This document shows positions 2,199 to 64,000 of a stretch of DNA of 64,000 nt, piece by piece. Location of the stretch: NCBI GenBank assembly GCA_044892525.1, contig CM097885.1, forward strand, positions 200,384,001 through 200,448,000, read 5' to 3'. Source of the stretch: Schmidtea polychroa. Its lineage: Eukaryota. The notes beneath the pieces are model-generated. The model saw nothing but the letters and a program-made list of their open reading frames with translations, ran no database searches and was not told the origin of the DNA. Made by a program: the position numbers and the translations under genes. Positions within the stretch are counted from its first letter, which is position 1. Each line of letters starts with the position of its first letter.

Positions 2199-3901
2199 TT
2201 AGTATTGTTTTAGGGTGTGATATCTTTCAAAACATTTGCCCCTGTGTAGGGGAACTTCACAAAATTTGCATATGAAGCATGTTTCACTACGCACCTTGTG
2301 CGCTGAACAGACACGACATTGCCTTTGAACAAATTTCTTCTTTCCCTTGCTTTCAATTTTGGCTATTACATGTTTGCGCATGTCTATGGAAAGCCTTCCA
2401 GGAGGGTCACGAGAAGGAGTCCTTTTCCACGAAGATGTCGATGGCCCTGGATCTTCAGAAATAACTTCTTCGTGAATCGAATCGGAAGTCCATTCGAAGG
2501 CAATGTCATATAAAAATCTTTTATATTTAATCTTTTTAGTTGTAATGGAGTTGTATACAACAAAAGAATTGAATAAGGCACAATTTATCATATACATTGC
2601 CACACGTTTTGTCCATTTCGTGGTTTTTCTCAAAATATTGTAATACGATAAATATTGATCGGCACGATCGACGCCTTTCATATACTTATTGTAATCAATA
2701 AGGGCATTTGGCTTGATAATCTTTTGTCGCGTCATTCGGTAGACATTATGGCTCTCCTTCATTTCTGCAGAATGGATAGAAGATATGAGAGATACCTCTT
2801 TCTTGGATTTCCAAACTTGTAACAATATATCATTTTTCCGACGGAATATTGTATCTCCTCTCTGTAAATCCGTTTTTTTAGGCATTCAGGTAAGCCTCTA
2901 TTTTTTCTAATGGTTCCACAAACCCTTATTTTCTTTTGTAAAAGCGCAACAGTATTGTCAACACTATTATAATAGTTATCCATATACAAATGGTGCCAGA
3001 CATCAGTATATGGCGAAACTACAGTTTGGATTGTTTCAATCAATCATAGTCCTTGCGCAGCGTAAATTTCAAAATTACAGATATATCCTGTATCACTCTC
3101 GGATAATATTCTCACGAGAATCCCGTACTTTATGATTTTTCCAGCATTGTACACCCTGAAGAATAGTCTTTCTCTCCATGGTATTATGCCTTCATCCAAT
3201 GAGACTTGCTGTTTTGGCTTGTAGATGTTTTTGAACTTTTCAACGAAGTGATTGATTATAGGTCTTACTTTTTCCAGACGATTAGATGGGTCAGTAATAT
3301 CTTCATTGTTATTGAAATGCCCAGCGCGCCATATTTGGTTAAACCTATCTCTTGACATTGTTTTACCGAAAAACGGCGTTTCTAAAACAGGATCTGTGGT
3401 CCAATATTCATTCCGTCTATCTTTCCGTACTAGCCCCATGAATATTATGAGACCTACAAACTTTTTCATTTCCGGAATGGTGATATCTTTCCATTTGATA
3501 CCTTTGGTTTGTGATTTTAGTTGGTCGATGTTTTGATAATAATATCTGTTGGATTCGATAACTAAAAACTTAAAAAAATCGTCGTCTATGAACAATTTCA
3601 ACACATCCATCTGCGTTTTTGGAGGATTATTCAAGGTAATTCCAGGAATACCCAAAAAATCTTCAAGAACTGGGGGATTATCATTTATAGACCAACCATC
3701 AACCTCTTCTTCGTCAGAACTGGACGAAATGGTTCTGCGGGTAAATGTTGTAGGCAGTGGAATAATATCTTCATCATCAACTAGATCGCTATCATCACTA
3801 TCAAAATCACTTTCACACGATATGTCGGATTGATCGTCGGCGTATATTTCTTGGTCACTATCTTCATTGTGGTGAGACATTTTTCTTATGGGATAAAACA
3901 C
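2199..3901 (-). pseudogene. piggyBac (PGBD4-like) transposase with one in-frame TGA (3044-3046) and one -1 frameshift in an A-run near 2875
   Basis: Acidic N-terminus, SLDEGIIPW, YMDNYY, KGVDRADQ catalytic motifs and C-terminal CRVC...CKFCEVPLH...C Cys-rich domain spread over three ORFs that join after fixing two lesions. Confidence 0.92.
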
Positions 3902-4033
3902 AATATAATAATATAACTAATAAAAAAAATAACAAACTTTCAATCACAATCTTGGTAAAAATGTCTGTTTCATCGAAAATTTATCAAAAGTATTTATACT
4001 TTTAAACACTAAAATAAAATGTAAATATGTACG

Positions 4034-11100: not shown

Positions 11101-11612
11101 GGTAGTGATATAATGAGGTAGGACCATGACTTGTGGATATCGTATTGATCTAGCAGACATTGATTTTCTCCGAAGACGTAAGTCCTTCTAATGGCTTTCA
11201 AGAATCCGACCTGGAAGCATATGAGGGAGTAGTGCTAACACAGGTGCTTACCTGCCGCATGTCCTCCATAGGCTCTGCACAGAACCAACGTGGAACACCT
11301 CACGGCTGCCTATTCGTGAAAGCAGCAGTCATGCGGCTTGTTGAGGAATTGAGTTCTTAAGGCTTGTTTGAAGCTTACAGCCTTATCGATAGATAAATGA
11401 ATGCACTAGTCTTGCCGTACATTTTGTTGTTTTGATTGTTATAATTTTCCCCCTGCTCGCCCAACATATTTCTCGCCTTAAATTTTAATTATAGTATATT
11501 AGTTTTCGATGACCATTAGCTTCAAATTTTCAAAGAAAATTTAAGTAATTATTCATAAACGAATTAGGACTTTTACTTTGATAAGGAAGACAAAATCTCG
11601 GATTTAGCATTA

Positions 11613-13087
11613 TGTTGGTTACTTAGGGGTGTATCATTTTTACATTTTAAAATGCGTTAGGGGTAATCATAATCGTTCGACTCTTTCCTAAGCACCTCCA
11701 TGACTATTGAAATTTAAACCATTTGTGTACCCATGGTGACGACCATGTTGGTACTGTACACAAAGGCGAAAAAACAATGAGCAGGTGAGCTCTATTACTA
11801 AAACTACTCCCCACTGTATTTTCTTTTCGGGTTCTAGACTGCCGATAGAAGGTCTTACGTCATTATTCACTATGTATGCTGTTTTTAGATCATTTGTGGT
11901 CCTCAATTACGGATATTTCCTATTGCTCTCTTACAAAAATTTTTCGCATGGATCCGCCCTTATTTTCCAGCTAATAATTATTATTCTACACTTCCTACAA
12001 TATCTAAATTATCCTTTGAAAAATTTGAGCAGGGATCTGCCTGTATTCTCAGTCCTAACCTACATTTGACCACAGTACTTCCAGCGATAGGACCCGTGAG
12101 GAAGCCCCCACATTCCGGCCCAAATCCAGCTGCGCGATTGAAAAACCAGCATACCCACCAGTCTGAGCATCCCGAAGGTACCTCAAACCATGATATGCTG
12201 AATCTCAATTCAGCGGTACTAACGTTCGTAATCAGTTAGTATAAAAATTGAACACAATAAAAATTATTATTTCATACCTACAACTAAATGAAATTAAACA
12301 ATTAAAAGAAAATAACAAAAGAAAATTTAACTAAAAATTTTATTGCATATTAAATTAAATCATCTCGTAAAATTACTACAACAATAAAAAATAAATTACC
12401 AAATCCACGTTGGCATAAAATCGAAAACTGAGAGCTTCACTGTCTGCAACTAAATTTTGATGTTAGAGAAAAAGTTGTCCCCTTAAATGAATTTGTGATC
12501 AGTATTTATACTGATTTTTCATGCATTTGCTGCCACTCTATCCAATCAGAGTGCGAGAAATTTTTAATTAGTCTTGCATACATGCATGAGTGTGTGCAAT
12601 TGTTTATTTGTTTTAATTCAATAAATTTAATTAATTTCTTATTTAATTTTTATTAATTTTAATTTTATAAATTTTATAATTTAAATAATTTGAGTTATAT
12701 TAATTTTTATTAATTTAAACATTTTTATTCTTTAAATTTAATAAGTTGAATAACCATTTAATTCTATAAACTTTACAATTTATATAATGCTAACTAATTT
12801 TATTATTTTTGACGATTTAATTTTTATATTGTTTAAATAATTTTCAACTAATTCTATTTTATATTTTATTATTTTTCTATTTAAATTTTTAAGTGTTGAA
12901 TTTTTTGTTAAATTTATTTATCCCTTATTCTATTATACGGGGTTTATTGGTTCTTAATGTGTGATGTAATTTATTTCATTTATTATAAATTAAACCTTGG
13001 TCATAAATTTTCCAACTTTGCGGTTTTTGTGTTAGGTATTTTTCGATCGATTAAAACAAACTCTCAGTTCTCGGCTTCAGCCCAACA
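11613..13087 (-). repeat. 3' LTR (1475 bp)
   Basis: Identical to 25271-26745 at offset 13658 apart from one mismatch I could see (11830 g vs 25488 a); TG...CA with 6-bp terminal inverted repeat. Confidence 0.93.
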
Positions 13088-14119
13088 AATCACTCCGGGA
13101 CCCTTTAAAATTGCGTCCCGCAATTCTGTTAGACATATGAATTTCCCAGGTCATAGTCTATTACATTCCCATTAACCTATAAACATACTATTATAGCTTA
13201 AGACATGTTAGAATTCAATTAGCAGAAAAAGGTCTAAGCTCAAATTCAAGCAGTTGCCACATACAGTGACTGGTCATAATACATATACATACTGATACAG
13301 TGTCCAAACTCAAGTACGAGTCATATGCAAAAGTTTTATTTCTGGATAAATTCATCAGTTGGTTGTTTCTCTCGTTTCTGGGCTCGGTTTTCGATCTTTC
13401 GTCTGGGTTGTGTAGGCATGTTTGGTCCCTGCTGTTGATTTTCATCGTTAGCTCGTAATGTTTACTGAAGATCATAGGATTCTCTCTATCAGGGTTTGAC
13501 TGTTTTTCCCTGATTCTCTTTGAATTTTTTGGCTGGGATTCCGGTTTTCTGGATCATTTGATGGTAGTTGACCGACCTTGCTCCAGGGTCTTCGGGACTT
13601 TTGTTTAACTGGGTGATTTGACACATAGATTTTTCTTTTGGTTTTTCTCGGTGGTTTTTGTTTACGGTATTGCTCTTATTAAGGGATTTTCTTTCTCCAA
13701 TGGGTAACTCAAATTATCTTCGATTTGGGTCTTAGTTAGCTTGATTTGACTAACTTTCCAATGTCACTGGGGCTGTGACTTTCGTCTCATTTATCAGGAT
13801 CTTTTACCGTTCTCCTTAGTTTTGGGTTCCAAATTAGATATTACTTTTCGATATTCGTTTAACTCATTCTTTCTGGGTTTGCACTTTTATCTTTCTTCTG
13901 GATTTATATTCTTTCTTCTCATTCGAGCCCCTGTTCTCCTTTACCATTGTAAGGGTTCAAATTTAGTAGTTTTCACAACTGATTACTTGATCCATTTCTA
14001 TTTATATATCGATCTTTTGCTACATTATACATCAATTTATACCTATACATCTAGTACATTTAGTTTGCTATTTATACATCAATTTTTACATATGTTCACT
14101 TCCTTTTTACTATTTTCAT

Positions 14120-16402
14120 CTACACTTCCTCTTTAATTTCCACTACATCCTTTGGACTACCCTTCTGCTTTTCCTTGGCTGTCATCATTTGTGTCTCTTC
14201 TGCCATATCTTTACATTTTTCTTGATTACTCGTTATTTCATTGATTCTTAATTCGGCTGACCTTGCTTCTTCTTTTAGTCGGAGTATCGTTGTCTTGAGT
14301 ACTTCATTTTCTCTTGTTCTGTTTTCTGCAACCTTTCTCCATATCATTATCAATTCATCCTGTCTCGTTTCTTTTACAACTAGTTCCATTATTAACCTGC
14401 ACTGTTCCACACATTGTCTCCTCAATTCCTCGTATGCGTTGGGTTTCACCTGTTCCTTCACGTCATTTGTCCGTCTCTGTACATTTGTCGACTGTTGTTT
14501 TATTAGCGTTGGAGATTGGTGTTTTCTAATTTCTGGCTGATAAATTCTGTTTTCGACATATTTTTTATTGTTCTGTTCTATGACGTATTCTCGTGACTGA
14601 TCTCTCACTGGGTTTGTCCCATTCGGACAGTTATTGACTAAATGTCCAGTTCTTTTACATTCGTAACACCTCTTTATGCGGCGATATTTATTTTTTCTGT
14701 GCTCATTTTTCTGACAATTCCCATACGTCTTATCGAAGAACCGATAGCGCTCATTGTGTCCTTGTGGTTGGTATTTGTTCCAGTAATTGTTTGTACTCGC
14801 GTCCCATTCGATATCTGGTTCGCACCCGCTTTCAATTTTTAACGTGTTTATGTCATGGTACTTTTCTTGCGTTTTTTCATTATTTCGTTTTTCGTGATTT
14901 TCGCCATTCTTCGATTCGCGCTTTTCCGGGATTACTGCAATTCCAACCTGACTATTGATGCCGGTATAATCTCTCTGATTGTCCTCAAATGTTTTGATGT
15001 TTTGATGGTCTAATATTACCTGTTCCAGTTTTTCAATTATTTCGCTTTCGATCCTTGAGTCCGGAATTTTTTGTAAATCTATTTCGTTGCTCGTTATCAT
15101 TCTCATCATATTGATTTGTATTACTCTTTTTTGTTCTCTTTCCCATATTCCTTTTATCTTTTCCCTCTGGTTGTCGTTGGTGGTTAGTCTCATTATATCC
15201 AATTTTACAAGTTCTTCCTTTCTCGTTCTCCAATATTTTTCTTCTCTTCTTGCCTGAGGTTCTTTTCGTTTACTCCATCTTTCTTCCGCTTCTCGTGCTT
15301 CCGCGATCTGTAAGGTATTCCATTCTCGTTGTTGTTTGGTTCGGATATTTTGAATTTGTAATGTGCCTCCCACACATTGTAATACATTTATTCTTGATTG
15401 TTGTTTTCCTTCCGCTTGAAACTGATAATCGATCATGTTACTGCACAGTCCTGTGAGAATTGTTATTTGATTTTGCATTTCAGCTAGTTGCTTTGCTGAC
15501 GTATCCCTATTGTCACTCCGTTGTTGGTTTCTTTTATTCGTACATGCAACTGCTAGATGGTCTCCTTGTCCGCGCGAGAAACATTTTTTGGATACTCCAC
15601 ATCTTACTGCGGTATGTCCTTTCTTACCGCAATTCCAACATCTTCTTTGTCCATGACATTCATCGAGCCAGTGTCCTTGCCTCTTGCAGTTATTACAAAA
15701 CTTTCCAATGTTTCCATTATTCGACCTCTTGCTTTTGTTGTCATTTTCGTTTCTTCGATTATTGTTGTTATGACTCCACTGTCTGTGGTGCTGGGGTTGA
15801 TTATCTGCGATATGCCTCCTACTTGGTGGTTGTGCTACTTTGGTGTACATTTCGCTTACATTCGCTGCCTCTACTGCTTCGTCCAGCGTCTTGCAGATTT
15901 TGCATCCTACTACACCTTTAATGTCATCTCGTCGCAATCCTTTTACAAATTGGGTTACTAATTGTGTTTCCATATCCTTTTCACTAAATAGCGGTTTGGC
16001 TAGACGTCTTAGTGCGCTTGCGTACAGTATATTTGATTCATTCACTGCTTGTCCTCGATTGAAGAATTCTAGAAATTTGTATTGTGCATCTTTTGCTTCT
16101 CCAAATGTTTTTATCAGAGCTTCCTTAATTTCTTTCCAGGTTTTTAGTGGGGTTGTACACTCTTTTATTCCGACGTACCAATTAAACGCGTCATCTGCTA
16201 GATATAGTGGGAGTCTTCTCACCATCATTTCGTTTGTCCATTTTAGAGCATCGCAATAAGATTCAAAATGTTGGATAAAGTTTGATAGTTTGTTCGGTTT
16301 TCCGTCGTATTTTTCGCCATTATATTTTCCCTGGAAATTGGGTATCTCCATTTCACCGAGTCTCTTGTTGATCGCTTCCATTTGGGCTGTTGTATCTACC
16401 AT
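14120..16402 (-). CDS. Ty3/gypsy-like Gag, 760 aa, four CCHC zinc knuckles (third degenerate) and coiled-coil tail
   Basis: Capsid-like region (FIQHFESYCDALKW...LPLYLADDAFNWY); CNNCKRQGHWLDEC, CWNCGKKGHTAVRC, CFSRGQGDHLAVAC, CYECKRTGHLVNNC. Confidence 0.88.
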   Translation of the reverse strand: MVDTTAQMEAINKRLGEMEIPNFQGKYNGEKYDGKPNKLSNFIQHFESYCDALKWTNEMMVRRLPLYLADDAFNWYVGIKECTTPLKTWKEIKEALIKTFGEAKDAQYKFLEFFNRGQAVNESNILYASALRRLAKPLFSEKDMETQLVTQFVKGLRRDDIKGVVGCKICKTLDEAVEAANVSEMYTKVAQPPSRRHIADNQPQHHRQWSHNNNNRRNENDNKSKRSNNGNIGKFCNNCKRQGHWLDECHGQRRCWNCGKKGHTAVRCGVSKKCFSRGQGDHLAVACTNKRNQQRSDNRDTSAKQLAEMQNQITILTGLCSNMIDYQFQAEGKQQSRINVLQCVGGTLQIQNIRTKQQREWNTLQIAEAREAEERWSKRKEPQARREEKYWRTRKEELVKLDIMRLTTNDNQREKIKGIWEREQKRVIQINMMRMITSNEIDLQKIPDSRIESEIIEKLEQVILDHQNIKTFEDNQRDYTGINSQVGIAVIPEKRESKNGENHEKRNNEKTQEKYHDINTLKIESGCEPDIEWDASTNNYWNKYQPQGHNERYRFFDKTYGNCQKNEHRKNKYRRIKRCYECKRTGHLVNNCPNGTNPVRDQSREYVIEQNNKKYVENRIYQPEIRKHQSPTLIKQQSTNVQRRTNDVKEQVKPNAYEELRRQCVEQCRLIMELVVKETRQDELIMIWRKVAENRTRENEVLKTTILRLKEEARSAELRINEITSNQEKCKDMAEETQMMTAKEKQKGSPKDVVEIKEEV

Positions 16403-17270
16403 CTCTAATTGTATTCTTTTTCCGTTTGTCTTTTCTTTTATTAGGTTTATGTCACTTTTATTATTTCTGTTTTCAGATAGAGTTTTCCTTCCTGAGGTTC
16501 TGATACGCGTATTACGCTTCTTAGCCTATTGTTTTCGAAATCCTTTTCACTGCTTCCTTTTATGGATCGACCTTTGGTCTTTGAGATGTCTTTTTGATTT
16601 TGCTTTTCGATTTCTTGTGCTTGCGTGGGTTTAATAGTTCGTCTTCCTTTCTTTGCAACTTTTAATTCTTCTTCTTTCAATAAACTTGGTTCTATTATTA
16701 ACTGTTTTGATCTGGTATGCTTTGTTATTGGTTCAATATTTCCGAACTTGGCTTAATTGTTTGACAATCACTTCTAGTTGGTTGCTGATACTTGGCTGTT
16801 GGCTTGATTGATTGATTTACCTGAATAGAAAAATATCACTTCTCCCTATCGTTTATTATATTTATAAATTATAATATATATATTATATAGTGTAATTGCA
16901 ATATTTTTACTTTGGTTTCTTTGGGTGCCGGCATATCTTAATATTCATTTCGTCGTTATTTTTGTTTACACATTGGTCCTCAAATTATTCTTAACTCGAT
17001 TCTCCATTATCCATTCTATATCCTCATCTATTCTCCTACATGGTTGTCTATTTTCAATTCGTTTTTCGTCTTTTTCCTTCACAATCTTATTTATTTTCAG
17101 TTATATATCCGTCAATGACTTCGGCCGTATTCTCGTTTATATTCTCGTCTATGTTTCTTCCAGGTACTCATCTATGTTCTCGTTTATCTTTCCTTTTACA
17201 TTCTCGTCTATATTCACGTCTGTTATTTCCGTTCCTATTCGTAGCCATTATTCTCATTTATATTCGTATC

Positions 17271-25263: not shown

Positions 25264-25270
25264 AAAATCA

Positions 25271-26745
25271 TGTTGGTTACTTAGGGGTGTATCATTTTTA
25301 CATTTTAAAATGCGTTAGGGGTAATCATAATCGTTCGACTCTTTCCTAAGCACCTCCATGACTATTGAAATTTAAACCATTTGTGTACCCATGGTGACGA
25401 CCATGTTGGTACTGTACACAAAGGCGAAAAAACAATGAGCAGGTGAGCTCTATTACTAAAACTACTCCCCACTGTATTTTCTTTTCGAGTTCTAGACTGC
25501 CGATAGAAGGTCTTACGTCATTATTCACTATGTATGCTGTTTTTAGATCATTTGTGGTCCTCAATTACGGATATTTCCTATTGCTCTCTTACAAAAATTT
25601 TTCGCATGGATCCGCCCTTATTTTCCAGCTAATAATTATTATTCTACACTTCCTACAATATCTAAATTATCCTTTGAAAAATTTGAGCAGGGATCTGCCT
25701 GTATTCTCAGTCCTAACCTACATTTGACCACAGTACTTCCAGCGATAGGACCCGTGAGGAAGCCCCCACATTCCGGCCCAAATCCAGCTGCGCGATTGAA
25801 AAACCAGCATACCCACCAGTCTGAGCATCCCGAAGGTACCTCAAACCATGATATGCTGAATCTCAATTCAGCGGTACTAACGTTCGTAATCAGTTAGTAT
25901 AAAAATTGAACACAATAAAAATTATTATTTCATACCTACAACTAAATGAAATTAAACAATTAAAAGAAAATAACAAAAGAAAATTTAACTAAAAATTTTA
26001 TTGCATATTAAATTAAATCATCTCGTAAAATTACTACAACAATAAAAAATAAATTACCAAATCCACGTTGGCATAAAATCGAAAACTGAGAGCTTCACTG
26101 TCTGCAACTAAATTTTGATGTTAGAGAAAAAGTTGTCCCCTTAAATGAATTTGTGATCAGTATTTATACTGATTTTTCATGCATTTGCTGCCACTCTATC
26201 CAATCAGAGTGCGAGAAATTTTTAATTAGTCTTGCATACATGCATGAGTGTGTGCAATTGTTTATTTGTTTTAATTCAATAAATTTAATTAATTTCTTAT
26301 TTAATTTTTATTAATTTTAATTTTATAAATTTTATAATTTAAATAATTTGAGTTATATTAATTTTTATTAATTTAAACATTTTTATTCTTTAAATTTAAT
26401 AAGTTGAATAACCATTTAATTCTATAAACTTTACAATTTATATAATGCTAACTAATTTTATTATTTTTGACGATTTAATTTTTATATTGTTTAAATAATT
26501 TTCAACTAATTCTATTTTATATTTTATTATTTTTCTATTTAAATTTTTAAGTGTTGAATTTTTTGTTAAATTTATTTATCCCTTATTCTATTATACGGGG
26601 TTTATTGGTTCTTAATGTGTGATGTAATTTATTTCATTTATTATAAATTAAACCTTGGTCATAAATTTTCCAACTTTGCGGTTTTTGTGTTAGGTATTTT
26701 TCGATCGATTAAAACAAACTCTCAGTTCTCGGCTTCAGCCCAACA
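25271..26745 (-). repeat. LTR (1475 bp) acting as 5' LTR of the gag-bearing unit
   Basis: Near-identical to 11613-13087 and followed (minus strand) by the PBS. Confidence 0.93.
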
Positions 26746-27068
26746 AATCACTCCGGGACCCTTTAAAATTGCGTCCCGCAATTCTGTTAGACATATGAAT
26801 TTCCCAGGTCATAGTCTATTACATTCCCATTAACCTATAAACATACTATTATAGCTTAAGACATGTTAGAATTCAATTAGCAGAAAAAGGTCTAAGCTCA
26901 AATTCAAGCAGTTGCCACATACAGTGACTGGTCATAATACATATACATACTGATACAGTGTCCAAACTCAAGTACGAGTCATATGCAAAAGTTTTATTTC
27001 TGGATAAATTCATCAGTTGGTTGTTTCTCTCGTTTCTGGGCTCGGTTTTCGATCTGTTGAATTTTTCG

Positions 27069-36760: not shown

Positions 36761-39336
36761 CAGCGCTGTCCAACTTTTCTGTACATGTGTGCCAATTTTA
36801 TCTTTTTGTAGGTTTGGCGGGTCATATACTATAAATTTTAATTAAAAGTCATTTATAATTTTTTTTAGTATTTTATTAGTTGATAGTTCAAGAAAAAAAA
36901 GAAAAAAAATATTAACATAATATTTATTAATGTGAAAACTGCTTATTTATATGGGCAGCTACAAGAACTTCGATATTTATATCAATTTTAGTTGAAGAAA
37001 TTCTTAAAATTTCTTCTAGTGTTTTGTCGGTCATTGAATTTCTATATTTAGATTTGATATATTTCATGTCAGAAAATGCACGTTCACAAATATATCAAAT
37101 ATAAAAAAAATATAAAATAGAAATTAATTTTAAGCCCAAATCGCGCAATTTTGGATATTTGTCGTTTGGAAACATTTTGAATAAATTTACCCCTGTCTCC
37201 AGCCTTGATTTAAAAAATTCGTCAGCTTGCAATTCACATAATTCCATTTGATATTTAATATCGGTTTCTTCAACGTCGATGGTAGTCGGATTATTAAATA
37301 ATTTTAGTTCTGGTTTAATTGCATCAAAATCAGAAAATCTGGCATCAAAATCTTCAACCAATTTGTCCAACATGGGTACATAATCTTTCATGTTTAATTG
37401 TTGACCGATTTCTTGCATTTCGATAGCAAGTTCATTACAACACTCGAAGTGCACCAAATTGTTGTTAATCAAATGAGACCGAAGCAAACGTAACTTATTG
37501 CGGAATCCGATGATATGGCTTACCAGATGACTTATGTTTTGGTCTTTGCCTTGCAAGTTTTTGTTCAAAACATTCAAATATTCGGTAATATCTGCTAAAA
37601 ATGCTAATGAAATTAAAAATGTTTTTTCATTAAAACTGGCTATAAATGACGAATCCAATTCTGTTTCCATAAGAAAAAGTTTAATTTCTTTACGAAGTTG
37701 AAAAAATCTTTTAAGGCATTTCCTTGCACTTAACCAGCGAACTTGGCTATGCAAAAGTAGATCACCATATTGGGCATCAAGTTCTTCAAGAAATTGTTTG
37801 AATTTACGATGAATGAGTGCACGGTTTCCGCCTCTTATTGCATTTGTTATTTTAATAATTGTACTCATCCTGCAACTTAATCCCATAATGTTTCCACATA
37901 AAGCTTGCTGGTGAATAATGCAATGCAACATTTGACAATTAATACCATTTTGTTTTAGCAGTCCAGCGAGTCCTATATTTTTCCCGACCATTGATTTTGC
38001 TCCATCAGTTACAATGACAGTGCATTTTTCAAAACCACCATACATGCAAACAACATTTTTGAGTTCCTCATAAATATCTACACCTTTTGTTGTTGAATGT
38101 AGGGAAGCCAATTTCAGTAACTCCTCCGAAACATTAAAATCACCATCCACTGTACGTACAAAAATCAGCATTTGGCTGGTATGAGATATGTCGGTGCTTT
38201 CATCAAGCGCAATTGAAAAATATATACAATTTTTTACTATGTCGGCTAATTTTTCAACTAAGGTGTCCATATTTAAGATTCGTCTTGCAACGGTTTGGTG
38301 AAAAAGAGAAACTGACTCGAACTGTTTTGCCATTTTATCATCTCCAAATGCTTGAGCCATTTTAATTGCACACTTCTTAATAATTTCATCATCAGTAAAT
38401 GGCTTTTTGGCTTTGGCAATTTCTTTTGCAACTGCATAAGAAGCATAAACAGATGCATCCTGAGCCTTACATACGAGGGGGATAATTGATGTTTGCTGCT
38501 TAAATTGTTTTTTTAAATTTTCAAGTATGACGATTCTCGACTCACCATTATATTTCGAATATTTGTCTGCATGCTGTGATTGATAATGACGCTTCAGATT
38601 ATATTCTTTACATATAGTAGTATTCATCCGGCATATCAAACACAGATAAATTTCTTTCTGCTTCACAAACATATAATCAATTTCCCATCGTTCTTTAAAT
38701 TCCCGATTCTCACTCGTAATTTTTCGTATTTTTTTTGCACTCATTTTATGACAGTAGTAAATATTAATATTTGTAAATTTTAAATAATAAAATAAGTTCG
38801 CTTGAAATAATAAAAAACTAAAAAATTAAAAAAAAATTAAATACCAAATTTTTTAAATGTACTTACCTAATTTTATGTGTATATTAAGCAAATAAAATTT
38901 CACAATAAAAACAATCAAACACGCGTTTACAGATTTTAAAATTTAAATACATATGTATTTCATTGTACGTAATTAAACAACGTTTACAATTTTAAATAAA
39001 CTATGTCACTTGTGGGTATAGTTTCATGGCATACTAGCCTGGAAAAGAGTAATAAAAAATAGTACAAAATAGTATTGGCTATGCGTGTGTCATATAGTTG
39101 CGGAATTAAATATAGATCAGTAAAGTTTCATGACAAAAACTAGATTAGAAAGAAAAATAAGACAAATAATATTACTGATATAATGCTGGTCATATTTAAA
39201 ATTGACAAAAATTTTAAAAAAAAATTCCATTATACAGATATTTTTATTTTGTTAATAGGCCATAGAATATGATTATTTTTATTTTGTGAATAGGCCACAG
39301 AAAATGATGAGATGGGCCGCCAGTTGGACAGCGCTG
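36761..39336 (-). mobile_element. Full-length hAT (Buster/Charlie, GTF2IRD2/SPIN-like) transposon (2576 bp)
   Basis: Perfect 14-bp TIR CAGCGCTGTCCAAC; perfect 8-bp TSD CTTTAGAC (36753-36760, 39337-39344). Confidence 0.96.
36927..38744 (-). pseudogene. hAT transposase, ~605 codons with one premature TGA at 37095-37097
   Basis: Zinc finger (CLIC..NLKRHY..H), SIALDESTD, VTDGA, HCIIHQ, VRWLS; after the stop the same frame continues YICERAFSDMKYIKSKYRNSMTD..L to TAA 36927-36929. Confidence 0.92.
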
Positions 39337-55061: not shown

Positions 55062-56926
55062 TTCAAATAGTTTATTCCAATTACGAATAACAACTTTACT
55101 TTAAGAATAAATATTGTGAAAAGTCAAGGATAATAAAAGGTATAAGCAAGAGTATCGAAGGATTCAGCAACACAATATAAATTATTAATTAACTAACAAC
55201 ATATTAGTGGGGTTTGTTTTTTAATTGTAACAAAAAATCTGGAATAAAAAATCTTTATTATAAGCTCTTAAAATTTAATTTTTAATTTCATAGACAATTT
55301 TCAGACGCGGTATTTATTTGACAGACCTTTTCAATATACTAGCAAAACTAGACTGTACATATGTGATATATAAATTCTGACCTCAGAGTCAAAATCTGAT
55401 CTAAAATTGTCTAAAAAGTACATCTAAAATTATTTAGATCCATAAATAATAAATTTAAGCGCAAATAGTACTGCACCTCCCCAAATTTGATAAATAGAGT
55501 ATGGAAAAATAAAAAACAAATACAATAATTCTTCACCAGTCTAACAAGAACTAGAATGAACTCATGGCCAAAGTAGAATTATTGATTAATTTGATTTATT
55601 GGCTGTAAAAAATTTCCCATGTGAAGATTTTTTTTTTGTTTTTAAAGGATTTTACATAGATCGCCGAATGTTTATGCAAATGTGGCTCTGATTAAAATAA
55701 AAAATATCAGATTTAAATAACGAACAATGTCGTTATTGATAAAAATGAGGTAAATAATCCCGTAGTTAGAAGAGTAAAAATCTTTTAGAACAATATAGTT
55801 TTTAACATAAATATCAAAAGGAAAATTACCATATAGTGAGAAAATATGTCGGTTTCATGATATTCCTTGAGTTATAAAAACTTTATTGGTAATTTTCCAA
55901 TGTTGCACAGATAAGAATTATCTTTCTTATGAAAACGTCATGAAGAAATTAGAAAAATAGGTTAACAAACGAAAGGTTTTCTTTCCTCGAATACAAGATG
56001 AACTCCAATTTTAATCGAAAAAAATAATAAAAAATACATTTTTTAAGACTTCCATGTCTAATTGTGCAAGAAAATCCCCCGCAATCGAAAGGTAAGAATA
56101 TTAGGCGATATTTATTGGGAAAAACATCGTATTATAGCCTAAAATATTTCTGATAACAAAATGTCTATTATATTGAAATTAAAATCTTATTAAAATCATT
56201 TTACTTCTATCTGTTATCTAGAAATGTATTTATTTTCATTCTTCAAAACTACAAATAATTGAGCTGCTTCCTATTTGATAAATAGTCGAAAAGAATGAAG
56301 AGAGATGAAACCATATTGTGTAATAAATTTTTGCGACTGTTTTTGTTTTAATCAACTTTCAACAATCAAATATGACAAAACAAAATCAAACATATTATAC
56401 GAAGTTAGTAGAATCATAATAAAAACTTAATTATTCAGGGTCACGGTAACTTTTGAATCATTATATTCTTTTACAAAATATAAAGTTTATTTCCTTCAAA
56501 TCTATGAACAACTTCAGTTAATTATAACAAATAGTATAATTTGCCATGAGAGTTTTTTAAAGAATTTTAATTTAATTTTCACAAAATTTCTTGAAATCAA
56601 AAACGAGTCCACAAGTTATTTCTAAATCTGATTTTGACACTTCACATCATTCCATCATTCCATCATTTTTCGATAAAAATAACGATACCAATTCTAAAAC
56701 TGGTAGTGTAGGGACTTCGGAGTAGAACTAAAATCCTACGACAAAATTATATCATAGAATAAATTGAGAATAAAATAGAGTAAAGTAGTCTTTTGTCGTA
56801 GTCTTGAGATTGATTCAGCTGTATATCGAGAGTAGTGAATAGTAAGGACTCCAGGACACTTTCAAGGTCATCCCAATGTCCAGATCAAATATAGGTCAAT
56901 CGAATCATTTTTTTTTTTAATTAACA

Positions 56927-57066
56927 NNNNNNNNNNNNNNNNNNNNNNNNNNNNNNNNNNNNNNNNNNNNNNNNNNNNNNNNNNNNNNNNNNNNNNNNNN
57001 NNNNNNNNNNNNNNNNNNNNNNNNNNNNNNNNNNNNNNNNNNNNNNNNNNNNNNNNNNNNNNNNNN
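56927..57066. other. Assembly gap (140 N)
   Basis: N run. Confidence 1.
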
Positions 57067-57510
57067 TTTATTATGCTTTTATTTTAGTATTATTTTATTA
57101 TTTTATTATTTTATTTATTATTATTTTTTTTTTTTTATTTTTTTTTTTATTTTTTTTTTTTTTTTTAATTTTACATTTACATTATATTCTAACAAGAGGT
57201 AAATTATAACGATAATATTTCAATTTGAATAAAATTTTAATTAGTAATTATTCAATTTGAATAAATTTTAATTAGAAATTATTTAATTTATTATAAAATA
57301 AAACGCTGAGTTAATTTTAGATAAACTGGATATTAATATTTCGGAAAAAATAAATAAATAAATAAAATAAACACAAAAATAATATTTCTTACTTGAAACT
57401 AATTATCTAAATTAATTGGACAAATGAATAATTAAATGATAAAACACATTTTAATTAACTAAGTCAAACAATTCACAATATATATTTTATTATTCACATA
57501 AATTTAATTG

Positions 57511-60500
57511 TTAAAGTGCTTGTTTCGATTTGCATTCATTTCTAGACATAGCAGTTGCAATATGCATTTGGCGAATCTTATAGTGACCGTAGGCATAACT
57601 TTCATTACAATTGTACCAATACCTTTTATCGTCCAAACATTGGAGAGCTCGTTTTTCTGTCATGAAAGTATACAACTGATGATTGACACTTCCTATTCTT
57701 TTTTGTGGGATGCTCACTGTTCCACCATCAGTATACACTTTTTTATAGGCTTCATGTGTAAGATTAGAGTTTGTAAGTCTTATTCCTTTGGCTTTTAGAG
57801 TGTTTTTATCGCCTTGGAGTGAGTAGCACTTGGGTCGAAGAAACACCCATTCTTTATATTGATTTCCTTTATTCTCATCCTTGAATTTCCCGATTACCGA
57901 ACAAATTTTATCTGAGAACAATGGATCAGTCACTGGATAATTTGAAGTATCTAGGAGCCCATCGGCAATCATTTTTGGATATAGTTGTAAGCGTAAATCT
58001 ACATTTTTACACTCTAAAAAGAAGGAATCTGTGTCACCGGCTACGATATTAATTTGACAATTGAATTCTTCTCTATAACTCTGTAGTTCTTTATATTGAA
58101 ACTGGTACATGCGAAGTTTGGATAAATCAAGTACGGTTTGTCCAATATACATTGGTCTATCTAAACACACAATTTCCTTATTGAGTATAACAGCAATGAG
58201 ATCATCCGCAATCTTGATGCTACGACGAAACATAGGATTACTACAATAAGTTATCAATCTTTTGCTTTTGCTGCATAATCTCAAATTTATACGTTTCTTC
58301 AAGTTTTCCACAGTTTTACCGTATAAACTGTTGTTCTTTAACTTATAATAATCTCGCTGAAACGAATCTGTACTAGCTGCTCTCATTTTGGTATTGTAAT
58401 CAATATAGCCTTTGAAAATAGCCACTTGCTTGAATTCTACAGCACGATTAACTTTTGTGACTTTTGCGCCGTAACTCAACCACTCTGTCAAAACTCTACC
58501 ATTAACTACATAGTTTTTCTTAGGCTCATGAGTTAACAACAGCTTTTCAACTTTACTACCAGGTGGATAACAAAGCTCAGGAGCTATAGGTAAATCATCT
58601 AGTTTATCTTGTATACTATCAGGAATGACGATGTCAACCTCTAGAACATATCCAAGATCTCCATCAAACTTATCCCCATTTGCACATCTTTCAACAATAC
58701 CATTCATTTCAGTCTGATCATTTATCCATCTAAATTCACCAACAGGAAGTTTTTGCGACAGCGCCCATCCATATAAATTATTAACATCTAGGTATGACAT
58801 TTGTGTTGATTCATCAGCTTCAACATGATGTTTGTTGATAAATGTCATTCCACCACGAATACCAGCTTCAAATAAACGGTAAAGCTCTGGATCTTGAATA
58901 AGTTCTACTGGTTCAGGTAACTGTTTAATAGCTGATGCCCAACTTAATCCGGGTATGGAAACAAACGATAGAGCCTCAAGTCCATCTTCGTCAAATGTTT
59001 TTTCTCTGAAAGCTTCAAAAACATCGGCCAACAGAAAAACATCCAACTTGAGATATACTAGCATGTAATCTAGCAGTGTCTCACAGTTGTATTGTCGCCA
59101 GATTCGATTTGCATGTATATAATCTTCTTGACTAACTCCCTCCCAAATCGGTGGTAATTCTGTTATTGACTGTAAAACATCCATTGATGTAGCCATATCA
59201 TAAGGAAATATGCCTTTACCAGTTATTAAATGCGAATTGAAAATCTTTGAAGTAAGTGGAAGACGTGGCAAGTTTTTTGATAAATTTGCCAAGCTGCTAT
59301 TTAAAAATTGTAAAGAATCAATGAATCTAATTCTTCTGCCTTTCGATGTCGCTGTAAGTGTGAGAAACTTTTCTGTTGATTGAGGAATAACAATTAAATT
59401 CCAATCGGGGAATTTTCCAATTGCATATTTTAATATATGATGAATGTCATATCCACGAAGATTATGAAATACAACAGGTAAAGACGGATTGATTCTTCTA
59501 GCCAAATTACAATCTTGACACGCTGCTCCGAGATATTGACCAGTAAAATGATCATGATCTCGAACAGGTATATTGATAATCTTTTTACAAAGGTAGCAAT
59601 GAGTTTGAGTCGTGAATTCTTCCTGCTGTTCCCAAGTGAGTTCCATCATTTCCTTCGATCCATTAATTTTATACCACGGATAAACTATGTCTGTAGCTAT
59701 ATCATCCAATGCTTGTATAAACTGAATGATACAGTTTTTCCCAACAAATGTTTCATTTCGAATCGGACAACCTTGATGAAGAAGCACAAATTCAGATGCA
59801 ATCGGCTCATGTTTTTGGAAGTGCTTGTCATCTAGAGGTAATATTGATTCAAAGTCCGCGTAGACAACAAACTGCTGTTTTATAGTTTTACTCCAGTCTT
59901 TAAATTCGATATATTTATTCTCTGGCATTGAGTATAGAGTCGTCCGCTCCACATTCTTCCTACAAAGACCTATATGTCTTTCAAAAGCAGGACGTTTTTG
60001 AAACCCATGAAGACACGTATGACACCAATGTGATTGGATTCTGACTCCTTCTACTCTATCTCTGTAATTGAGCAGTCGATCGAGATTAGTTACAGCCAAA
60101 AAATGATAATTTAATTCTAAAATTTAGTTAATATTTTTAATGATTAAAAGAAATATTACCTTCTTCAATCAATAAGAGATATAATTGACATCCCGTCGAA
60201 GTACTTCTATATACCAAGTCAACGAACGGATTCTTGAAAATATCATTAGTTTTTTGTTTAATTGGATCTTTATTATATTTGAGAACATTGATCGCTAGAT
60301 TAGGATTCATTGCCTCAAATTGGCAAATGTTAACCAACTTCATTGGAAACCAATCTGATTTCCATTTTAACTCTAAATATATATATTTTTAGAATGATAT
60401 AAATATATATTACCACTTAAATTATATTTCATTACTCTTTCTCTGTGATGTTTTATGTCATCATAATGTAATACGGCCAGTATGCTATATAAAAAGCAGA

Positions 60501-61482
60501 ATTGATCATTATTTTGAACATTAACTAAAGCCTGGCAGTTTTTCAGGTAATTTGGCGTTTTAATGTAACTTGAACCTAAGTAATCTCTTGATTTATATAT
60601 ATAATAATGTAAATAATCTTACCAGATACATGTATTATGTCTGATAATTTAGTTAAAATCATAGTAACTTCTAATATTTTATGAATTCTCCACCCACTAC
60701 TTTGTTGAGTGTATTTCTCCAACTTTTCTTTTAATTTTTCAATTCCATCATTAATAAATGAAGATGACATTGTAATTGCTTTATTCGACAAACACCATTT
60801 TTTAATTTCACCATCCTCTTTGATAAACTCTGCACAAAGTCCAAATTGGATTTTTACTGTCCCCATTCGTTGAATATGATCTTCTATTTCTTTGATGAGA
60901 CAATCTGGAACAACAATGTCAGGAGAATTAATTGCAGATACATCGCTTGTCAATTCAACACGAGAACCGTTTAAGTCAGACTCCCGACGTGGACACAATT
61001 GTATGTTAGAGTCTCCATTTCCGTAAAATATTGACTTTCGTTTTGTGGTGCCAGAGTTTTGTCTAACTATATTTATAATTAATATTAAACAACTTAAATA
61101 ACATAACTTGTAACATATTCTTTAATCTCCTTAGGATCGTATGATGTATTCATTTTCGATTGTACTATAAAAAATTAATAATTGTTAATAGTAGAAAGAG
61201 TATTACTTTTAGTGATCATCCTGCTCTTCGTTTCTTCGAATCTTCTAAGATGGTGTCCGTGTTGTCGTACAAACATTAACCACCTACCTGGTGTTATAAT
61301 GAGACATTCCGGACATATGTAACCCGATAAGGTAGAGTCATTTATCTTGAAATATGATGATGTAACTGATTTACAGTTCTCCACATCTTCATGACTTTCG
61401 GCAATACAAAATTTATATAAACTGCATCCGTTCACTAAAAAATAATCATTAATATTAGATAGAGAATAAAAATTTATTCACT
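57511..61482 (-). CDS. Polinton/Maverick-type protein-primed family B DNA polymerase, 7 coding exons, ~1236 aa
   Basis: Exo motifs YADFES, FHNLRGYD, YLKLDV; pol motifs YLDVNNLYG, KLKNNSLYGK, GDTDS, GKFKDE, LRPKCYS, KAKG; EndoVII-like insert and C2HC finger. Coding exons 61482, 61434-61207, 61164-61108, 61066-60623, 60575-60414, 60372-60160, 60116-57511 sum to 3711 nt with no internal stop; exons 5-6 give family N-terminal blocks GSSYI.TP..VNVQN.D.FCF and FPMKL..ICQFE..N. The first three introns are less certain. Confidence 0.88.
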
Positions 61483-61504
61483 TATATAAGTTAAATTAAA
61501 AGTT

Positions 61505-61642
61505 TAAATGACAAACATTTGAAAAGTTACTGCTTATATATTACACATGATTAAATTCTGACCAATCAAAATCAAGGAAGGGGTAGGAAAAATAAATATA
61601 TTCTGACCAATCAAAATCAAGGAAGGGGTAGGAAAAATAAAT
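61505..61642 (-). promoter_or_regulatory. Putative Pol II promoter of the polymerase gene
   Basis: TATATAAG at 61540-61533 and TCATT initiator-like A at 61509 (31 nt spacing); two 42-bp direct repeats (61556-61597, 61601-61642), each with a CCAAT box. Confidence 0.65.
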
Positions 61643-62048
61643 GCATTACATTGCAGTATTTTAAAACTTAAATTTTAAAACACATTTTGACGCTAAAGTT
61701 GACTTATTTAACATTTTCATAATAATTTAATAAAAATAATGTGTTGAACTCACAAAGTAATATCATTTTTTTTTTTTTCATCAAATTGCAAAACAGTAAT
61801 AACGTTTTCATAAAATTGTAACAAAGTAATAACATATTTCAGATAAATTTTCAACAGTTGTAAAATATTTATCAAATTGTAACTAAAATAATAAAAATAT
61901 TGCAACAAAGTAATAAAATAATAATGGTAATTAAGACAAATCAATACATTATTTCGAAGACGGACAACAAATTAAAAAGAATATTGTAACTAAAATAATA
62001 AAAATATTGCAACAAAGTAATAAAATAATACAACATTTTAAACTCTAG

Positions 62049-62460
62049 ATCAATCCATTTTATAGAAAATTAAATTTTATCTATATAATATATGAATAAA
62101 TATCCAAGGAAATTACGTTAACGTATAATAAATACAAATTTATCGTAAAAACATGTGTGTATTACACACAAAACAAGATACATAATTTCTAATCAATCCA
62201 TTTTATAGAAAATTAAATTTTATCTATATATTATATGAATAAAATCCTAAGAAAATTACGTTAACCGCGCGAAAAATACAAATTTATCATAAAAACATGT
62301 GTGTATTACACACAACATACGAGACATAATTTTTAATCAAGCTATTTTATAGAAAATTAAATTTTATCTATATAATATATGAATAAAAATCCAAGAAAAT
62401 TACGTTAACCGCGCGAAAAACTACAAATTTATTGTAAAAACATGTGTGCATTACACACAA
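62049..62460. repeat. Three tandem ~142-144 bp units within the left inverted-repeat arm
   Basis: Units start ~62049, 62191, 62335 (atcaa..ttttatagaaaattaaattttatctatata...acatgtgtg.attacacac). Confidence 0.9.
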
Positions 62461-64000
62461 AGCATCAAACTGAAATTGTAATTGCGCCATGTTGTAGAGA
62501 ATTAAATTCTGCCTATACATTGTTACACTTAAATCTCGATCAGACATGTGAAAAGAGACATAAAAGAGAAAAAACAGTAGAGTAGTATGATGTGAGCTCC
62601 CCAGACCATGTCCCCTCCAGACCACATATACCCCCTCCCCCCCCCTCCCCCCCCCCGGTCTGAAAAATTTTATTTTTTTAGAACGATGCCTAATATTTTT
62701 AGAACTATTACGTAATCAATGCCTAATATTTTTAGAACGATGCCTAATATTTTTAGAACTATTACGTAATTTTTTTTTAAATTAAGTGATCCAGCGGGGA
62801 CCTACTTTTTTTCATCCCAAAAATTATTGTTCCCGCCAACATATTATATTGATCGATAGCTTATTTTAAAGCTCTGTGCAAGAACTTTCTAATGAGATAT
62901 AGATTTTTATCATACGATGACTCATCACATTTTTAGAACAAAGACAATGACTCATCACATTTTTAGAATGATGTCTAATATTTTAGAATGATGCCAAATA
63001 TTTTTAGAATGATGCCAAATATTTTTAGAACGATGCCTAATATTTTTAGAACTATTACGTAATCGATGTCTAATATTTTTAGAACGATGCCAAATATTTT
63101 TAGAATGGTGCCTAATATTTTTAGAACGATTACGTCATACTTTTAGAACGATGCCTAATATTTTTAGAACTATTACGTAATCAATGCCTAATATTTTTAG
63201 AACGATGCCTAATATTTTTAGAACTATTACGTAATCAATGCCTAATATTTTTAGAACGATGCCTAATATTTTTAGAACTATTACGTAATTTTTTTAAATT
63301 AATTGGTCCAGCGGTGACCTACTTTTTTTCTTCCCAAAAGTAATGTTTCCATCATCCGAATTTATTAATCAAACACTTATTTTAAAGCCCAGTGCAAAAT
63401 CTATATACTGATATATAAATATTATTATTAACATTATTTTACACACGGGGGGAGGGGGTATATGTGGCCGAGCGGGCTCCTGGCCGGGCGGGCCCACATC
63501 ATACTACTCTACTGTTTTTTCTCTTTTATGTCTCTTTTCACATGTCTGATCGAGATTTAAGTGTAACAATGTATAGGCAGAATTTAATTCTCTACAACAT
63601 GGCGCAATTACAATTTCAGTTTGATGCTTTGTGTGTAATGCACACATGTTTTTACAATAAATTTGTAGTTTTTCGCGCGGTTAACGTAATTTTCTTGGAT
63701 TTTTATTCATATATTATATAGATAAAATTTAATTTTCTATAAAATAGCTTGATTAAAAATTATGTCTCGTATGTTGTGTGTAATACACACATGTTTTTAT
63801 GATAAATTTGTATTTTTCGCGCGGTTAACGTAATTTTCTTAGGATTTTATTCATATAATATATAGATAAAATTTAATTTTCTATAAAATGGATTGATTAG
63901 AAATTATGTATCTTGTTTTGTGTGTAATACACACATGTTTTTACGATAAATTTGTATTTATTATACGTTAACGTAATTTCCTTGGATATTTATTCATATA
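62089..64000. repeat. Long inverted repeat: arms 62089-62642 and 63447-64000 (right arm cut by window end), axis 63044.5
   Basis: Coordinates pair with sum 126089; identical in all spot checks except a 27-nt block (62595-62621 vs 63468-63494). Confidence 0.95.
62677..63340. repeat. Spacer tandem array of GATGCCTAATATTTTTAGAAC with TATTACGTAATC inserts
   Basis: More than a dozen visible 21-mer variants; higher-order duplication 62677-62830 vs ~63200-63340. Confidence 0.9.

Follow-up and report, generated by a model that had tools for sequence, protein, structure and literature searches.

The six-intron gene for a Polinton-type DNA polymerase (pPolB) in Schmidtea polychroa contig CM097885.1 is one arm of a palindrome in which pPolB is the only gene, a point missed by the original prediction. 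We consider it probable that the gene belongs to a family of palindromic, polymerase-only Polintons, which likely replicate through a hairpin and likely use the integrase of complete Polintons residing in the same genome. It is a variant of the Polinton kind, with a spliced replicase within an amplifying polymerase-only palindrome.

Structure of the pPolB gene

The gene maps to the minus strand of the window, i.e., the whole 64,000-nt stretch that was analysed. Its product is a Polinton-type DNA polymerase, as originally predicted, matching PF03175 (E 4e-31) and featuring intact Exo I-III and Pol A-C motifs. A phase-blind splice search returned exactly the six GT-AG introns of the original prediction, all in phase 1: intron 1 (61435..61481, 47 nt), intron 2 (61165..61206, 42 nt), intron 3 (61067..61107, 41 nt), intron 4 (60576..60622, 47 nt), intron 5 (60373..60413, 41 nt) and intron 6 (60117..60159, 43 nt). 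The introns range from 41 to 47 nt, are 83-90% AT and, by eye, are mutually unlike. When applied to the host gene INTS13, the same search returned phases 2, 0, 1 and 0, merging short introns there, and thus has no built-in phase preference. By eye, INTS13 introns measure 38, 42 and 42 nt, with phases 2, 2 and 0, in line with the host-like intron size that had been noted.

Exon lengths sum to 3711, confirming the stop-free coding sequence of 3711 nt. The internal exons measure 228, 57, 444, 162 and 213 nt, each being a multiple of three and stop-free on its own, and retention of any single one of the six introns introduces a stop codon within that intron. Judging from the GT-AG ends, the host-like size and the colinear protein obtained after removal, the introns conform to the U2 spliceosomal type.

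The predicted start codon is interrupted by intron 1 after its first letter (A|TG). The predicted exon 1 (61482..61509), which includes a short 5' leader and the A of the start codon, was placed from an initiator word found 31 nt after the TATA box. The predicted promoter (61534..61612) features the TATA box at 61540 and a reversed CCAAT word at each of 61567 and 61612; a doubled CCAAT-like word also precedes the gene of the relative L086. A predicted poly(A) signal word (57486..57491) directly follows the stop codon. The promoter and poly(A) words support host polymerase II-type expression of the pPolB gene.

Domain organization of the protein

Relatives whose frame is uninterrupted, with an identity of about 60% over the catalytic part, align to the spliced product exon by exon. 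In the P0002 alignment, residue 233 is the last of exon 4, and exons 5 and 6 cover residues 235-287 and 289-358, respectively, leaving one residue for each codon split by introns 4-6. Exon 2 begins at residue 2 of both P0010 and P0015, which supports the split start codon; the phase assigned to intron 1 depends on this A|TG reading. Removal of the introns restores N-terminal blocks of the family, as had been claimed. Exon 3 (18 aa) gave no alignment in 19 of the 19 homologues tested.

Domain limits were taken from a model of an uninterrupted homologue, L082, that covers its N-terminal 425 residues (mean pLDDT 83.6). The model features a little-finger/PAD-like domain at residues 119-228 (Z 8.6, rmsd 2.5, 92 aligned) and an OTU domain at residues 239-372 (Z 5.9, rmsd 3.5, 100 aligned), the latter matched by many OTU rows. 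Foldseek returned nothing at E 0.001 or better, its hits near E 0.01 being little-finger domains alone. All 61 of the 61 rows have both Cys260 and His363. In the numbering of the homologue, intron 4 falls at residue 234, between the PAD-like and OTU domains, and introns 5 and 6 fall at residues 288 and 359, both inside the viral OTU (vOTU) protease.

The domains are ordered zinc finger, terminal protein, vOTU, exonuclease and polymerase; a TP-vOTU-EXO-PALM order is reported for Polinton pPolB in the available portion of PMC11161782. Exon 2 (61207..61434) encodes an N-terminal Cys/His (zinc-finger-like) module, which is followed by intron 2. Exon 3 (61108..61164) is a 57-nt linker micro-exon without homology, and exon 4 (60623..61066) corresponds to the terminal-protein domain, with the little-finger/PAD-like fold predicted by the homologue model. 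The vOTU domain starts in exon 5 (60414..60575), which holds the catalytic Cys codon at 60498, and continues, beyond an intron 5 located in a vOTU loop, with the core strands in exon 6 (60160..60372). Exon 7 (57511..60116) encodes the vOTU catalytic His, a zinc finger, the exonuclease with an endonuclease VII-like insert and the polymerase. The intron-bearing region, which had been presumed to be that of the terminal protein, does include this domain, but it also encompasses the zinc finger and the vOTU protease.

The palindromic element and its family

The element is a 12,428-bp palindrome extending from position 56831 of the window to G000:C1:200453258. The left arm (56831..62580), whose terminus begins AGTAGTGA, ends inwardly with four 144-nt tandem repeats (61987..62562) and is followed by a central loop of 928 nt (62581..63508), both sides of which begin with the terminus type of family 3, a Polinton family residing in the same genome. 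The right arm starts at 63509, runs to the end of the window (64000) and continues to G000:C1:200453258, carrying the second gene copy on the plus strand. The arms are 99.8% identical across 5,578 aligned bases. The gene fills each arm, and the two outward-facing copies are identical over 4,089 nt. The element has AGTAGT ends and is flanked by a 6-bp target-site duplication, the left copy of which (56825..56830) has the same six letters as those found after the right end.

The element resembles Polintons/Mavericks (eupolintoviruses, as described in the available portion of PMC11161782) in its pPolB family, domain order and intact vOTU Cys and His, as well as in its AGTAG-type ends, 6-bp target duplication and size near 13 kb. 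Unlike Polintons, it has frames for pPolB alone, with no integrase, capsid, ATPase or protease, and consists entirely of one inverted repeat with two polymerase genes. With Polinton ends, mobility, no integrase and a candidate helper present in the genome, it has the features of a non-autonomous Polinton derivative.

Exact copies of the terminus number 140 in forward and 141 in reverse orientation genome-wide, corresponding to a family (family 1) of about 140 elements or more. In C1, 59 and 61 ends form 54 pairs, 44 of which span 11.5-14.2 kb. Of 27 stretches examined, 26 contain both ends, and the 6-bp target duplication is found in 25 of these. In 24 of the 26 two-ended elements, long frames are pieces of pPolB only; element D holds an inserted complete Polinton, and element J holds another insertion. 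Ten unpaired ends and ten single arms represent shortened, nested or internally deleted copies, and one shortened arm (C1:19.5 Mb) adjoins a family-2-like capsid piece. The 48 loci (27 stretches, 1 additional locus, 10 unpaired ends and 10 single arms) sampled from several hundred yielded no family 1 copy that encodes an integrase or capsid of its own; integrase in these loci is confined to other families that are inserted or lie alongside. The same genome also has complete Polintons, which encode integrase, capsid and ATPase and have AGTAG-type ends. Family 1 ends share just 5-8 terminal letters with these candidate helpers, and from the common terminal letters and the duplication length we infer mobilisation by a helper integrase.

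Origin of the palindrome and similarity of its arms

Six of 21 elements feature at least 10 differences from any other element, and yet their arms differ from one another by 0-6 only. The partner arm is strictly the nearest sequence in 10 of the 21 elements, is tied in 6 and is not the nearest in 5. Four of the latter belong to very young clusters, and one (E9) is a hybrid with unlike arms (41 differences). Private alleles occur in both arms in 67 cases vs 61 in one arm. In 17 of 20 centres, both arms stop at the same word and the terminus of another family directly follows. This terminus is that of family 2 in 13 centres and of the family 3 type in 4, including the element in the window, and the loop of element K retains 1.3 kb of a family-2 polymerase end.

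Arm likeness and fold-back centres led us to infer hairpin (snap-back) replication, carried out by the polymerase of the element itself. Host RNA polymerase II would transcribe each arm outward, and the spliceosome would excise the six short introns, the start codon itself being created by splicing. The terminal protein would then prime at a free end, and the displaced strand could fold into a 6-kb hairpin, the copying or repair of which would make the arms alike, before the product is inserted by the integrase of a complete family whose ends are of the AGTAG type. The palindrome may have originated when the inverted repeats of another Polinton folded back, and the end of that Polinton would persist as the loop.

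Alternatively, a mobile palindrome could spread by plain excision and reinsertion, with no hairpin step, its arms being homogenised by gene conversion after insertion. Private changes common to both arms look unselected, with exon 7 pN/pS values of 0.84-2.3 in three elements, and among them are a donor-site change and premature stops, all of which suit conversion, and E9 reveals that recombination between elements does occur. However, a copy number in the hundreds requires amplification, pN/pS values of 0.17-0.35 between subfamilies show purifying selection on the polymerase, and family 2, which also makes pPolB-only palindromes, includes one perfect fold-back without any spacer. We regard conversion of this kind as less probable than hairpin replication, though a serious alternative.

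Polinton replication is still mostly a model. A young, high-copy palindromic family predicts snap-back DNA, protein-linked ends and arms that are identical at insertion, all of which could be checked in one animal.

Intron phase in the pPolB clade

Blind calling assigned phase 1 to 27 of 27 introns in nine genes, complete Polintons included. Introns are routine in this pPolB clade, a finding that the original prediction had named as grounds for its refutation and that partly counts against it. L086 has four introns, two of which coincide in position with introns 4 and 6; it has no intron 5, and the zinc-finger exon is missing in frame. L094 features intron 4 at the same position, and both L102 and L104 start with the acceptor of intron 6. 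Three introns each are found in L106 and L099, in which intron 2 has a similar position. L091, which is near-identical to L099, is a complete, capsid-bearing Polinton by its frames. L093 has four introns and a visible tandem duplication of an exon along with its intron. Intron positions are common to relatives at about 56% protein identity. The co-resident families 2, 4 and 5 carry leader introns. Family 2 had been a candidate intronless family, which was rejected since its leader introns precede the zinc finger. In family 5, the splice search took one long intron vs four short ones seen by eye, and one was counted.

The original probability of about 0.0014 for six introns all in phase 1 assumed that introns are independent, and the phase had been chosen post hoc; the phase count itself holds. 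For six introns sharing any one phase, the value is 0.004, or 0.012 with the usual animal phase frequencies, and with the same frequencies seven independent sites would give 0.005. As the introns are not independent events, no single p value applies. With introns being routine in the clade, the phase rule is firmer as a fact but weaker as a sign of special regulation in this gene.

The exon-plus-intron duplication in L093 and the absence of the zinc-finger exon in L086 indicate that the single-phase rule likely reflects inheritance along with the turnover of symmetric exons. Some introns would have been inherited, and N-terminal micro-exons would have been gained by duplication and lost only where both flanking introns have the same phase. 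Duplication and loss of symmetric micro-exons explain the variable N-terminus but do not on their own account for introns 5 and 6. In both the catalytic and the terminal-protein trees, intron-bearing and uninterrupted relatives are intermixed, and repeated precise loss or parallel gain is hence needed. Exchange of N-terminal modules was also considered. Since the terminal-protein tree agrees with the catalytic tree in placing family 1 with uninterrupted relatives, with modest support in both, exchange is not supported. A clade-wide single phase accompanied by gains, losses and exon duplication offers a compact natural case for the origin of phase symmetry.

Phase 1 might instead be kept for regulated exon skipping, yielding isoforms without the zinc finger, the linker or the terminal protein, such as a polymerase acting in trans without its own primer. 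The uniform phase of all 27 introns would fit, as would the absence of the zinc-finger exon from L086, the location of intron 4 at the terminal-protein/vOTU boundary and the match of exons 2 and 4 to whole modules, which, on the homologue model, could be dropped as such. The same does not hold for exons 5 and 6. Because the vOTU protease is interrupted by introns 5 and 6, skipping of exon 5 or 6 would be destructive, removing the catalytic Cys or core strands. Moreover, no exon-skipping joint is found among the joints listed for the contigs of four runs, a weak data set, and vOTU cleavage has already been proposed to free the terminal protein (available portion of PMC11161782). The regulated isoforms envisaged at first are thus unlikely, and inheritance with symmetric exon turnover remains the preferred explanation of the phase rule.

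Transcription, variation and selection

One contig from run X1, guessed to be RNA, departs from the genomic sequence at 60118, beyond which its 13-letter overhang matches the end of exon 5; it is the one loose end at junction 6 among the loose ends listed. Intron 6 is present at 671 genomic sites and absent at 0. No joint at any of the six introns occurs among the joints listed for contigs of runs guessed to be RNA, and other contigs from three runs, also guessed to be RNA, cross introns 1-3 unspliced. The RNA evidence for removal of the introns is slight. Nuclear, spliceosome-dependent expression, as originally suggested, is favoured by the real introns and by the TATA, initiator, CCAAT and poly(A) words, its RNA counterpart being a single contig end.

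Comparison among copies sustains the introns. Of the 252 intron copies in 42 arms (21 elements), 250 retain GT-AG ends. Among the 42 arms, introns 4-6 vary in length by non-multiples of three, with intron 5 ranging from 41 to 120 nt; introns 1 and 2 vary by three alone, and the length of intron 3 is constant. Internal exon length is kept in 208 of 210 cases, and exon 3 is fixed in 42 of 42 arms. Within the overall pN/pS range given above, exons 2-6 have a value of 0.26 between subfamilies and exon 7 has 0.17-0.18, which shows purifying selection on pPolB; the signal comes from exons 4-7, as differences in exons 2 and 3 are too scarce.

Domestication, which had also been proposed, is highly improbable. 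Introns and promoter are host-like and the frame is intact, but the gene has 131 scored matches at 99-100% identity, fresh target duplications lie at different sites, there are elements just 0-1 letters apart in 4 kb, and introns also occur in the capsid-bearing relative L091. The occurrence of hundreds of near-identical, target-duplicated mobile copies rules out a domesticated gene for this copy, which is multicopy, mobile and has kept its ends. Although most contigs are unspliced, it is scarcely credible that the introns represent the frameshifts or insertions of a decayed gene, given the abutment of homologues, the intron positions in relatives, the GT-AG ends kept in copies, the blind calling and the 671 sites vs 0, or that the palindromes are assembly artefacts, given the matching target duplications, the small arm differences and the loops common to different loci.

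Relation to known systems

Intronless core genes are reported both for vertebrate Mavericks (PMC8097293) and for a nematode Maverick in which cargo genes have introns (10.1101/2022.07.12.499685), and the sole mention of introns in PMC10748475 is of a group I intron as a source of domains; all three statements refer to the available portions of these reports. This agrees with the original remark that Polinton genes are usually intron-poor and sets the six introns of the present polymerase gene apart from reported Polintons. If core genes are spliced, surveys that rely on ORFs overlook the terminal-protein and vOTU regions of these polymerases and may score live elements as defective. In the literature consulted, consisting mostly of open papers, we found no description of spliced Polinton polymerases or palindromic Polintons, and the available text of PMC6431247 has nothing on a palindromic form.

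In C. elegans, partial Polinton-1_CB copies that retain pPolB and TIR and lack an integrase are described as remnants (PMC11414722). They similarly keep the polymerase end without an integrase; a palindromic amplifying family is not described for them in the available portion of that paper.

Phi29-type subgenomic molecules are reportedly palindromic hairpin replicons of terminal-protein genomes. Subgenomic phi29 DNA arises by template switching of the polymerase, which amplifies one genome end (cited in the available portion of PMC4974454). As in phi29, one end of a protein-primed linear genome is amplified alone; in contrast, the planarian elements are integrated, target-duplicated and heritable, have a selected polymerase gene and hold the end of another family in the loop.

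A broader view, which we advance tentatively, is that such elements are integrated snap-back polymerase satellites, which would multiply as hairpins by means of a selected polymerase of their own, take up a helper end in the loop and parasitise the helper integrase. The pPolB clade would then be the first with a spliceosome-dependent modular core replicase, the strict phase 1 of which would let zinc-finger, linker and terminal-protein modules swap or skip.

Adenovirus E2B and IVa2 transcripts are spliced, and the IVa2 start codon of turkey haemorrhagic enteritis virus lies across a splice junction (available portion of PMC11304566). The predicted splicing of a terminal-protein/polymerase mRNA and the formation of a start codon by splicing are common to the two systems. 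In the same source, adenovirus relies on alternative leader splicing onto long exons, whereas the short, constitutive-looking introns of pPolB cut domains and are all in one phase. Introns within polinton-like elements are also known from dinoflagellate proviruses, in which introners were found (available portion of PMC12166617). Unlike introners, the six pPolB introns are AT-rich and mutually dissimilar, have positions common with relatives and interrupt a frame under selection.

Variation among family-1 polymerase genes

The window copy of the family-1 polymerase gene looks like a mosaic of two subfamilies. Exons 2-4 are an almost exact match to subfamily B (genomic stretches L206-L213 and L216-L217), and exons 5-7 match subfamily A. 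The two arms of element E9 (L049-L050) differ at 41 positions and belong to different subfamilies, which suggests that separate elements have recombined.

Intron 5, which spans positions 60373-60413 of the window, is as long as 120 nt in other copies as a result of (AT)n expansion, and its length can differ between the two arms of one element. In the polymerase gene of a relative (L093:1-470), a micro-exon and its intron are duplicated in tandem.

Nested and palindromic Polintons

Polintons are often nested within one another in the Schmidtea polychroa genome. A family-1 palindrome (L067-L069, G000:C2:131647627-131671399) is interrupted by a complete Polinton, the integrase of which is fused to a phospholipase A2-like domain. 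At L225-L226:6214-18135, a family-1 polymerase gene is interrupted by a Polinton of another family.

Family 2 forms a polymerase-only palindrome at L178-L179 (G000:C4:82979700-82992400), the fold-back centre of which is perfect and lacks a spacer; two further pairs of this type are found in L180-L181 and L194-L195. Family-2-type Polintons carry a gene resembling that of the TATA-binding protein (L061:2735-3223; PF00352, E 5e-15), and a similar frame is present in L091, a complete Polinton judging by its frames. A 9-kb element with family-3-like ends (L223-L224, G000:C1:9184281-9193314) features inverted arms of 2.7 kb and a 6-bp duplication, and contains no frames of at least 170 aa.

Other probable mobile elements in the window

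Two near-identical long repeats (11609-13088 and 25267-26746, offset by 13,658 nt) flank a frame that resembles gag and contains a zinc knuckle (14120-16525, minus strand), and together probably constitute a large LTR retrotransposon. Also on the minus strand are a piggyBac-like transposase (PF13843) in two frames (2199-3916) and a frame of 576 aa that includes a Spin-doc zinc finger (37095-38825) and is probably transposase-derived.
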